This document shows positions 24,776 to 26,264 of a DNA stretch of 64,000 bases, in pieces (within the stretch, counting starts at the first letter, position 1; each line of letters starts with the position of its first letter). This stretch comes from Eledone cirrhosa (Eukaryota), in NCBI GenBank assembly GCA_964016885.1, contig OZ024742.1:52700001-52764000 (forward strand), in the 5' to 3' direction. Under the pieces are notes generated by a model. That model did no database searches. It saw only the letters and a program-made list of their open reading frames with translations, and had not been told where the DNA came from. The position numbers and the translations under genes are program-made.

Positions 24776-25518
24776 AATTAGTATATCTACCAACATATGT
24801 ATACTGATGTATACCCATGCTAGCAAATATATATGTTATGTCCTACTACCTTTGTGGTTCTATGCAGGGGATGCAAAACAATTATATGAAAGACGTAAAA
24901 TAAGAAAATTTTAAAAATTAAAAATTAACTTACTAAAATTTTCACTCCAACTAATTAGTTTCTGTACGGGAATAAATATAGTTACGCAACGTAACTATAG
25001 AGAAGTCCTTACGTCATCAGGGAGTCTATTCTCAGCCAAGTTCCAAGGCAATGCGCGGACACTAGGAACCCATATAAAAATAATAATTCAGTGGATGGTA
25101 TTTTCTTATTTTACGTCTTTCATATAATTGTTCTGCATCCCCCTGCATAGAACCACAAAGTTACTAGGACATAACATATATATTTACTAGTATGTGTATA
25201 CATCAGTATACATATGTTGGTAGATATACTAATTCTCTATATTTATCTCCAAATTATTGTTGAGCAAAACTTGCCAAAATTTACTGCTATGGTTCATAGT
25301 AGTAGTTAGGCTCTTGTCATAATACCACCCCACTCCTCACTGATTAACCTCAATGTCACGTGATTGATTCTTTAGAATTTTCCACTGACCAAGTAGGCAG
25401 TGAATTTTTTCAGTGCCCTGGAATTTAGTCCCCGCTAGCTTTATTCCATCCACTGAATTATTATTTTTATATGGGTTCCTAATGTCCGCGCATTGCCTGG
25501 GAACTTAGCTGAGAATAG

Positions 25519-25600
25519 ACTCCCTGATGACGTAAGGACTTCTCTATAGTTACGTTGCGTAACTATATGTATTCCCTTACAGAAACTAATTAGTTGGAGT
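25519..25600 (+). ncRNA. Type-I hammerhead ribozyme, unit 1 (antisense copy at 24944-25025)
   Basis: ACTCC-CTGATGA-(C)GTAAGG..CCTTAC(A)-GAAAC-TAATTA-GTT-GGAGT, with an inner hairpin TATAGTTACG/CGTAACTATA in stem II. Confidence 0.88.
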
Positions 25601-26057
25601 GAAAATTTTAGTAAGTAAGTTAATTTTTAATTTTTAAAATTTTCTTATTTTACGTCTTTCATATAATTGTTCTGCATCCCCTGCATAGAACCACAAAGGT
25701 ACTAGGACATAACATATATATTTGCTAGCATGGGTATACATCAGTATACATATGCTGGTAGATATACTAATTCTCTATATTTATCTCCAAATTATTTGTT
25801 GAACAAAACTTGCCAAAATTTACTGCTATGGTTCATGGTAGTAGTTATGCTCTTGTCATAATACCACCCCACTCCTCACTGATTAACCTCAGTGTCACTT
25901 GATTGATTCTTTAGAATTTGCCACTGACCAAGTAGGCAGTGAATTTTTTCAGTACCCTGGAATTTAGTCCCCGCTAGCTTTATTCCATCCACTGAATTAT
26001 TATTTTTATATGGGTTCCTAGTGTCCGCGCATTGCCTGGGAACTTAGCTGAGAATAG

Positions 26058-26139
26058 ACTCCCTGATGACGTAAGGACTTCTCTATAGTTACGTTGCGTA
26101 ACTATATTTATTCCCTTACAGAAACTAATTAGTTGGAGT
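26058..26139 (+). ncRNA. Type-I hammerhead ribozyme, unit 2
   Basis: Same motif as 25519-25600. Confidence 0.88.
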
Positions 26140-26264
26140 GAAAATTTTAGTGAGTAAATTAATTTTTAATTTTAAAAATTTTCTTATTTTACGTCTTTCA
26201 TATATATATATATATATATATATATATATATATATATATATATATATATATATATATATATATA

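Follow-up and report, generated by a model that had tools for sequence, protein, structure and literature searches.

The window analysed here, a 64,000-nt stretch of the 3.0-Gb, microsatellite-rich genome of Eledone cirrhosa, contains an array of repeated units organised as two arms in opposite orientation. The forward arm (25100-26204, plus strand) is comprised of m44-539, one full 539-nt monomer and m1-70, where m1 (25596) is the base directly after a predicted hammerhead cut; it amounts to two 539-nt units with 96.5% identity, plus 27 nt, and terminates in (TA)n. The inverted arm (24776-25101, minus strand; ~95% identity) runs from m387 to m539 and then from m1 to ~m181, spanning the unit junction, and passes at its end into (TC)42 followed by (TA)n. 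The two arms, both 5'-truncated, meet head to head at 25098-25101 and have their 3' ends facing outward. On the right, the forward arm ends at site A (~m67-70; 26196-26204, plus strand), where an AUAU microhomology passes into the (TA)n microsatellite of the right flank (26200-26264). On the left, the inverted arm ends at site B (~m181-189; 24776-24785, minus strand), which passes into (TC)n and then (TA)n, the left flank (24308-24776) being composed of a (TA)n and then an (AG)n microsatellite.

The predicted cut-to-cut monomer (25596-26134, plus strand) measures 539 nt, is non-coding and has a G+C content of 34.7%. The array contains no ORF, the longest stop-free stretch in six frames being 61 codons, and an interpretation as coding sequence or ORF remnant was rejected on this basis; nor was a tRNA-like part found in the unit. 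Outside the ribozyme motif, a conserved box (25355-25372, plus strand) with the E-box-like core GTCACGTGATTG represents a candidate promoter element, which is altered in the second unit. Ten of the 14 differences between the two units are rare alleles, which indicates that the locus in the window is an aged copy and not a master. An earlier sequence-only reading of this DNA had described two near-identical non-coding units, an inverted copy reading across their junction, and predicted cuts after 25595 and 26134, and is borne out on each of these points.

Hammerhead motifs and their predicted folds

CUGAUGA cores are located at 25524 (plus), 26063 (plus) and 25020 (minus), and belong to three hammerhead motifs that all satisfy the type I consensus (CUGANGA, GAAA and UH, with stems I to III): hammerhead 1 (25507-25613, plus strand; core 25524-25530; predicted cut after 25595), hammerhead 2 (26046-26152, plus strand; core 26063-26069; predicted cut after 26134), and hammerhead 3 in the inverted arm (24931-25037, minus strand), in which a private change breaks one stem II pair. 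The sequence-only reading had counted the two motifs on the forward arm correctly but had missed the third. The long stem II includes a second hairpin. The core is atypical, with an extra C after A9 and an extra A before G12, opposed as a 1x1 C.A mismatch where stem II begins, and with the cleavage triplet GUU; a U at position H17 falls inside the hammerhead consensus (PMC3088659), and GUU is found among the cleavable triplets (PMC3138052; cited beside it and PMC3088659: PMC6765202). Across 24 aligned copies the closing G-C pair of stem II is kept in 23, with an extra C or A on its 5' flank and an invariant A on its 3' flank. Copies that vary at position 17 carry A (28) or C (6) more often than the inactive G (2), an imbalance due in large part to one GUA sublineage.

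A 12-nt palindrome, AACTAATTAGTT, is present at 25584-25595, 26123-26134 and 24949-24960, and could form either stem III or an intermolecular duplex; it is invariant across the 24 aligned copies, partly owing to the way the loci were selected. The palindrome that had been placed in stem III is real, but its length is 12 nt and not six. According to the fold predictions, the lowest-energy structure of the monomer sequesters the core by pairing it with the palindrome, and the active monomer fold lies 2.9 kcal/mol above the ensemble, so that the ribozyme is predicted to be weak as a monomer, and cleavage in vitro, from which the sequence-only reading expected a 539-nt product, may be weak as well; pairing of the palindrome with a second copy gives a duplex at -10.8 kcal/mol, in line with the dimer-type action proposed earlier. 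Folded as a circle, the monomer reaches a predicted -137 kcal/mol, compared with -102 +/- 7 kcal/mol in 60 shuffles. The description of each unit as holding an "intact" hammerhead holds for the core motif, present in both, but has to be qualified for the extra C and A, the GUU triplet and the hidden core.

No Rfam hammerhead match was obtained in the monomer region, even at E<=10, and no hammerhead model figured among the 150 of 176 matches listed for the whole window; the ribozyme call consequently rests on the core motif and on covariation (see below). The minimal hammerheads of Penelope-like elements (PLEs), described as dimer-type ribozymes of low activity (PMC4209133), would fit the monomer and dimer folds predicted here. 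The motif differs from them by the invariant extra A before G12, the second hairpin in stem II, GUU and the 12-nt palindrome. An extra base on the 5' side of stem II is known in PLE hammerheads, while the extra A on the 3' side is without counterpart in those descriptions.

A family of roughly 10,000 copies with covarying stems

Exact genome-wide matches to a ribozyme 18-mer number 9,628, compared with none for its reversed control, and those to a box at m297-310 number 7,438, which puts the copy number at roughly 10,000. Since the first 100 matches of the 18-mer lie in ~63 insertions, the number of insertions is estimated at ~6,000. Cut-to-cut units range from 500 to 579 nt (54 distinct units), typically 520-570 nt, and arrays reach 6.4 units. 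The median difference is 2.5% between segments of the same insertion, compared with 11% to copies elsewhere (155 pairs). A second copy in the window (4278-4495) is short and without hammerhead; its A and B arms join near m10, with a small internal palindrome at the arm junction, and it was inserted where another element ends in (TA)n. Two loci 227 kb apart (L040 and L041) carry an identical insertion with identical flanks and represent a segmental or assembly duplicate.

Members of the family form subfamilies at 75-98% relative to the copy in the window. Among 73 copies from position-ordered loci, 65 have one of four compensated stem II types and 67 an intact CTGATGA; a further subfamily has a longer stem I, which is compensated as well. 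In a set of 24 diverse copies, six of which were picked for a changed base after the cut and whose relatedness inflates the scores, the stems were paired in 94.3% of cells (84.6 +/- 0.9% after shuffling), double changes numbered 45 (13.7 after shuffling), the covariation score was matched by none of 500 shuffles, and slid controls were paired in at most 44%. The stems thus covary, and between subfamilies ~20-25% apart they are compensated and the core is conserved.

A tandem layout in which every unit has its own type I hammerhead and none has an ORF is that of non-LTR retrozymes, as had been recognised in the sequence-only reading, and a survey of the copies, which had been suggested as a check, revealed other multimeric members, with 37 of 140 arms crossing two cut sites. 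Presenting the array as the best candidate for a new element was an overstatement: it is one of ~10^4 copies, and our verdict is that of a new family within the animal retrozymes, a class argued to be non-autonomous PLEs. Animal non-LTR retrozymes (PMC7229834) are alike in that their tandem units are non-coding, low in GC and furnished with a single type I hammerhead, in the lack of LTR, PBS and PPT, and in their well-folded predicted circle, and a PLE has been proposed as their mobiliser. In contrast, the units described here are longer (520-570 nt versus 150-450 nt), occur mostly as dispersed head-to-head insertions of one to two units and not in arrays, and carry a PLE-style instead of a canonical hammerhead; circles were demonstrated for the retrozymes of PMC7229834 and are only predicted here. 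Retrozymes with consensus sequences of 51-972 bp, a range that includes 520-570 nt, and existing as monomers, dimers and multimers have recently been put forward as non-autonomous PLEs (Li, Clavereau, Pollet, bioRxiv 10.64898/2026.07.22.740005). That argument was built on co-occurrence and on homology with PLE pLTRs in 35 mostly vertebrate genomes, whereas the present one is built on insertion anatomy, no homologous pLTR having been found. The same source gives eight of nine Xenopus retrozyme dimers as not cleaving in vitro. In the openly accessible literature no account was found of this family, of a tail as long as the one seen here, of strict end pairing, of such an atypical core, or of arms starting at the cut.

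Several other elements of the window have a related appearance. A second non-coding hammerhead family (38222-39110, also 16910-17163) is arranged head to head, likewise has GUU and a basal C.A in stem II, shares a 17-nt hairpin motif with the retrozyme unit, and occurs in many of the sampled loci. In a single case (L219) the first 20 nt of the retrozyme monomer are joined in phase to this second family, possibly through an RT template switch, which would imply a shared enzyme, or through a later deletion. A third head-to-head hammerhead family (3686, minus, and 4159, plus) has two ends, one of them followed by (TC)n and (TA)n. More hammerhead-like motifs with different stems are located at 8615 (plus), 46937 (minus), 57504 (plus) and 58258 (minus). 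Inverted-repeat structures with (TA)n borders at 22989-23600 and 23700-24155 are probably head-to-head insertions of other families.

Two fixed ends and (TA)n targets

The ends of the insertions were surveyed in 88 loci, of which 58 were position-ordered and 30 had been selected because the base following the cut was altered; another 12 were excluded as overlaps or duplicates. Of 153 arm 3' ends, 140 map to site A (61) or site B (79), located ~70 nt (A) and ~185 nt (B) downstream of the cut, at a spacing of ~115 nt. Among 60 head-to-head pairs, 53 combine A with B, seven have a damaged end, and none is A+A or B+B. (TA)n follows 60 of the 61 A ends and 62 of the 79 B ends, and (TC)n follows 11 B ends. 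The latter is found only where the element itself has CTCT at B (9/10 versus 0/42); the element thus seeds (TC)n microsatellites, via DNA slippage or reiterative reverse transcription. Any target-site duplication would be unreadable within such microsatellite flanks. Judged from sequence, the AUAU present in both sites would be able to base-pair with a (TA)n primer exposed by nicking. The simplest reading of these ends is that each strand of the target primes its own cDNA, one at A and the other at B, and that the truncated cDNAs are joined head to head.

The window also contains a fragment of an autonomous PLE (43373-45131) with an RT, a CxxxxCxxC linker, a GIY-YIG-type end and a hammerhead at 44939. 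This family is young, as its top 101 matches (from 43,352 first-look candidates) are 96-100% identical, and its ends comprise 19 of A type and 18 of B type out of 38, ~60 nt apart and in (TA)n. That the 3' ends are fixed at two sites, pair strictly as A+B and lie in (TA)n, as in this autonomous element, supports the earlier proposal of mobilisation by a PLE RT, and we regard it as very probable that the family is a non-autonomous PLE with two-site integration. The units are likely copied in trans by a Penelope-like RT-endonuclease, probably of the Neptune type, the assignment to this type being based on the linker and the (TA)n bias described in PMC8557442.

The insertions resemble PLEs with their pLTR, inverted 5' copy and "tail" (PMC3846280, PMC8557442) in having head-to-head arms, a one-ended tail, and AT-rich or (TA)n targets; they differ in having a tail of ~115 nt instead of 30-40 nt, and in lacking an ORF. 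In vitro, a PLE was found to use two internal RT start sites, to which the tail was traced, with both target strands cut and extended and with a dimer predicted (PMC11167929, Frangieh 2024). Two internal start sites downstream of the hammerhead are common to that system and the present family; the strict pairing seen here contrasts with the result reported there, where the start site did not differ between strands. Hammerhead cleavage was dispensable for insertion in the same assay, in which no RNA reads were seen at the cut (PMC11167929).

The partner that would supply the enzyme was sought in several ways. Thirty loci of the window PLE family had no sequence in common with the retrozyme unit. 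An adjacent-ORF screen of ~180 insertions revealed no autonomous partner with a shared pLTR, and none of 153 insertions had an arm continuing in phase into a PLE ORF (27 loci had nearby PLE protein matches, of which four were inspected by eye). A relaxed stem III pattern gave 243 matches, the first 30 of which all belonged to the retrozyme family and included no partner. One locus with an adjoining PLE ORF (L176) was rejected as a partner copy, the two being arranged tail to tail, and is best read as a deletion; a retained PLE intron after the cut was likewise not supported, a donor-like hexamer being present in 52 of 54 units but the candidate acceptor AG in only 29 of 54. As separate observations, two strong matches in the window PLE loci are independent retrozyme copies in their flanks; the longest open frame of the window PLE family (L256; 1,407 aa) resembles two PLE pieces joined in frame to an Asn-rich segment; and a 637-aa PLE-like RT-endonuclease frame (40427-42340, minus strand) lies between direct repeats inside an inverted-repeat element.

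The anatomy of the ends also bears on two other origins. A SINE-like or satellite repeat moved by LINE or DNA mechanisms, in which the hammerhead-like motif is now irrelevant, would agree with the missing Rfam match and with the LINE fragments in the window, but is largely refuted: the repeat has neither a tRNA-like part nor poly(A), in place of a single 3' end it has two fixed ones that combine as A+B in 53 of 60 pairs, and stems and core are preserved between diverged subfamilies. The units might otherwise be solo pLTRs of a 5'-truncated autonomous PLE, with tandems arising by slippage or unequal crossing-over. PLE insertions are often 5'-truncated and have inverted pLTRs (PMC8557442, PMC3846280), and DNA-level duplication has probably occurred in the family: in a 6.4-unit array (L255:5154-8905) five variants are common to units 3 and 5, which suggests duplication of a two-unit block and not rolling on one circle. 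This origin is nevertheless improbable, because in every long arm the hammerhead is preceded by the previous unit and not by the end of an ORF, 37 of 140 arms cross two cut sites, and no arm in 153 insertions enters a PLE ORF in phase.

Cleavage and the nature of the RNA template

If the ribozyme cuts in vivo, some insertions may begin exactly at the cut. Genome-wide, 61 rows have a non-T base before m1, and 25 of them (23 events) represent a 5' truncation precisely at the cut; starts behind a T are not countable and stand outside this tally. When two non-T bases were required, 16 rows (15 events) remained at the cut, versus 5/5 and 5/7 at two control sites having the same upstream TT, an excess with p=0.003 or 0.006; one base further in, the figure was 11/51. 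In eight of the 23 events the opposite arm, too, begins at the cut or no more than a few bases from it, compared with four of 60 ordinary pairs with matched starts (p=0.003), and the cut-start insertions are independent and come from several subfamilies. This excess is likely the footprint of cleavage in vivo, although an RT pause at stem I could mimic it, and on sequence grounds we hold it probable that the ribozyme cuts in vivo. Partly cut linear templates would then account for a minority of insertions, which we estimate to be of the order of 1%. G-to-T changes are in excess at the base after the cut: of 243 matches, the first 100 carry T in 50, A in 39 and C in 11, compared with a background ratio of T to A of 53 to 163 (p=3e-7). 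This excess was kept out of the evidence because only one context-matched column was available; an RT error at the rejoined bond and oxidation at GG are candidate causes.

Rolling reverse transcription of a circular RNA, the origin put forward in the sequence-only reading, is compatible with part of these data. Two cut sites are spanned by 37 of the 140 arms, a count made on loci chosen for having a hammerhead and in which the locus length of 3-4 kb limits that of the arms. Most arms pass through the cut site without a break in the sequence, and the whole genome contains five one-base deletions at the junction, for which reason frequent end-to-end jumping of the RT at the cut was rejected; the 656 "+1" matches derive mainly from the subfamily whose stem I is longer and compensated, which accounts for 96 of the 100 listed. 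In 27 insertions, the distance between units was 2.55% when matched by rank and 2.80% when mismatched (p=0.59), and the position-specific unit differences expected of aged linear masters were overall not found. Seamless junctions and equidistant units indicate that most templates were continuous across the cut and had identical units, which fits a circle, the template proposed in PMC7229834, as well as an uncut transcript of a very young array; a very young linear master would likewise give equal distances. Uncut linear multimers would fit too, and some templates were likely linear with their 5' end at the cut. On balance we lean slightly towards the circle as the main template.

The alternative that integration proceeds by the same two-site PLE mechanism, with linear, uncut or partly cut read-through of multi-unit loci as template, circles being absent or irrelevant and the ribozyme trimming 5' ends only, is the less likely reading, with several points in its favour. 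In five insertions (L143, L147, L155, L206 and L221) arms begin at the cut and further on read through another site that was left uncut. In one of them (L155) the arms differ at 0 of 444 positions and the tandem units at 3 of 112, and both arms begin at the cut, from which we conclude that its template was a linear, non-identical dimer with position-specific differences. In addition, the monomer ribozyme is predicted to be weak, and unprocessed RNA is the main PLE substrate in vitro (PMC11167929). Against a linear template as the rule, the 140 arms show no 5' pile-up that would mark a transcription start, their starts being spread round the unit; rank-mismatched units show no excess divergence; and, as the arms are on average shorter than such a template, at least five subfamilies would each need a long master array of their own.

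The best explanation of the locus, to which we assign a probability of roughly 0.58, is that of an aged copy of a non-coding hammerhead repeat with ~10,000 copies, likely copied in trans by a PLE and probably mostly from a circle. On this explanation, loci with at least two units would be transcribed, and weak, dimer-wise cutting through the 12-nt palindrome would release monomers of 520-570 nt that are ligated to circles. Both strands of a (TA)n target would then be nicked, as the structure of the insertions suggests, one cDNA being primed at A and the other at B. The arms stop at scattered points, mostly beyond the cut site, and are joined head to head. A minority of the templates would likely be linear, with their 5' end at the cut.

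The family bears on two questions: by what route animal retrozymes are mobilised, and whether hammerheads of the PLE type are active in vivo. We tentatively propose that the ~6,000 insertions record the PLE reaction itself, in which a dimeric RT-endonuclease would always prime the two target strands at two different sites of the RNA, mostly on circles from a weak, dimer-gated GUU hammerhead and in ~1% of cases on cut linear RNA. With its non-coding substrate of 539 nt, its two mapped start sites, strict end pairing, many subfamilies whose stems are compensated and a measurable footprint at the cut, the family opens both the choice between circle and linear RNA and the priming at one site per strand to direct tests. 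If the proposal is true, the insertions would be proof at the DNA level of germline cutting by a retrozyme hammerhead, and the inverted repeats of PLEs would be explained as two cDNAs joined head to head.
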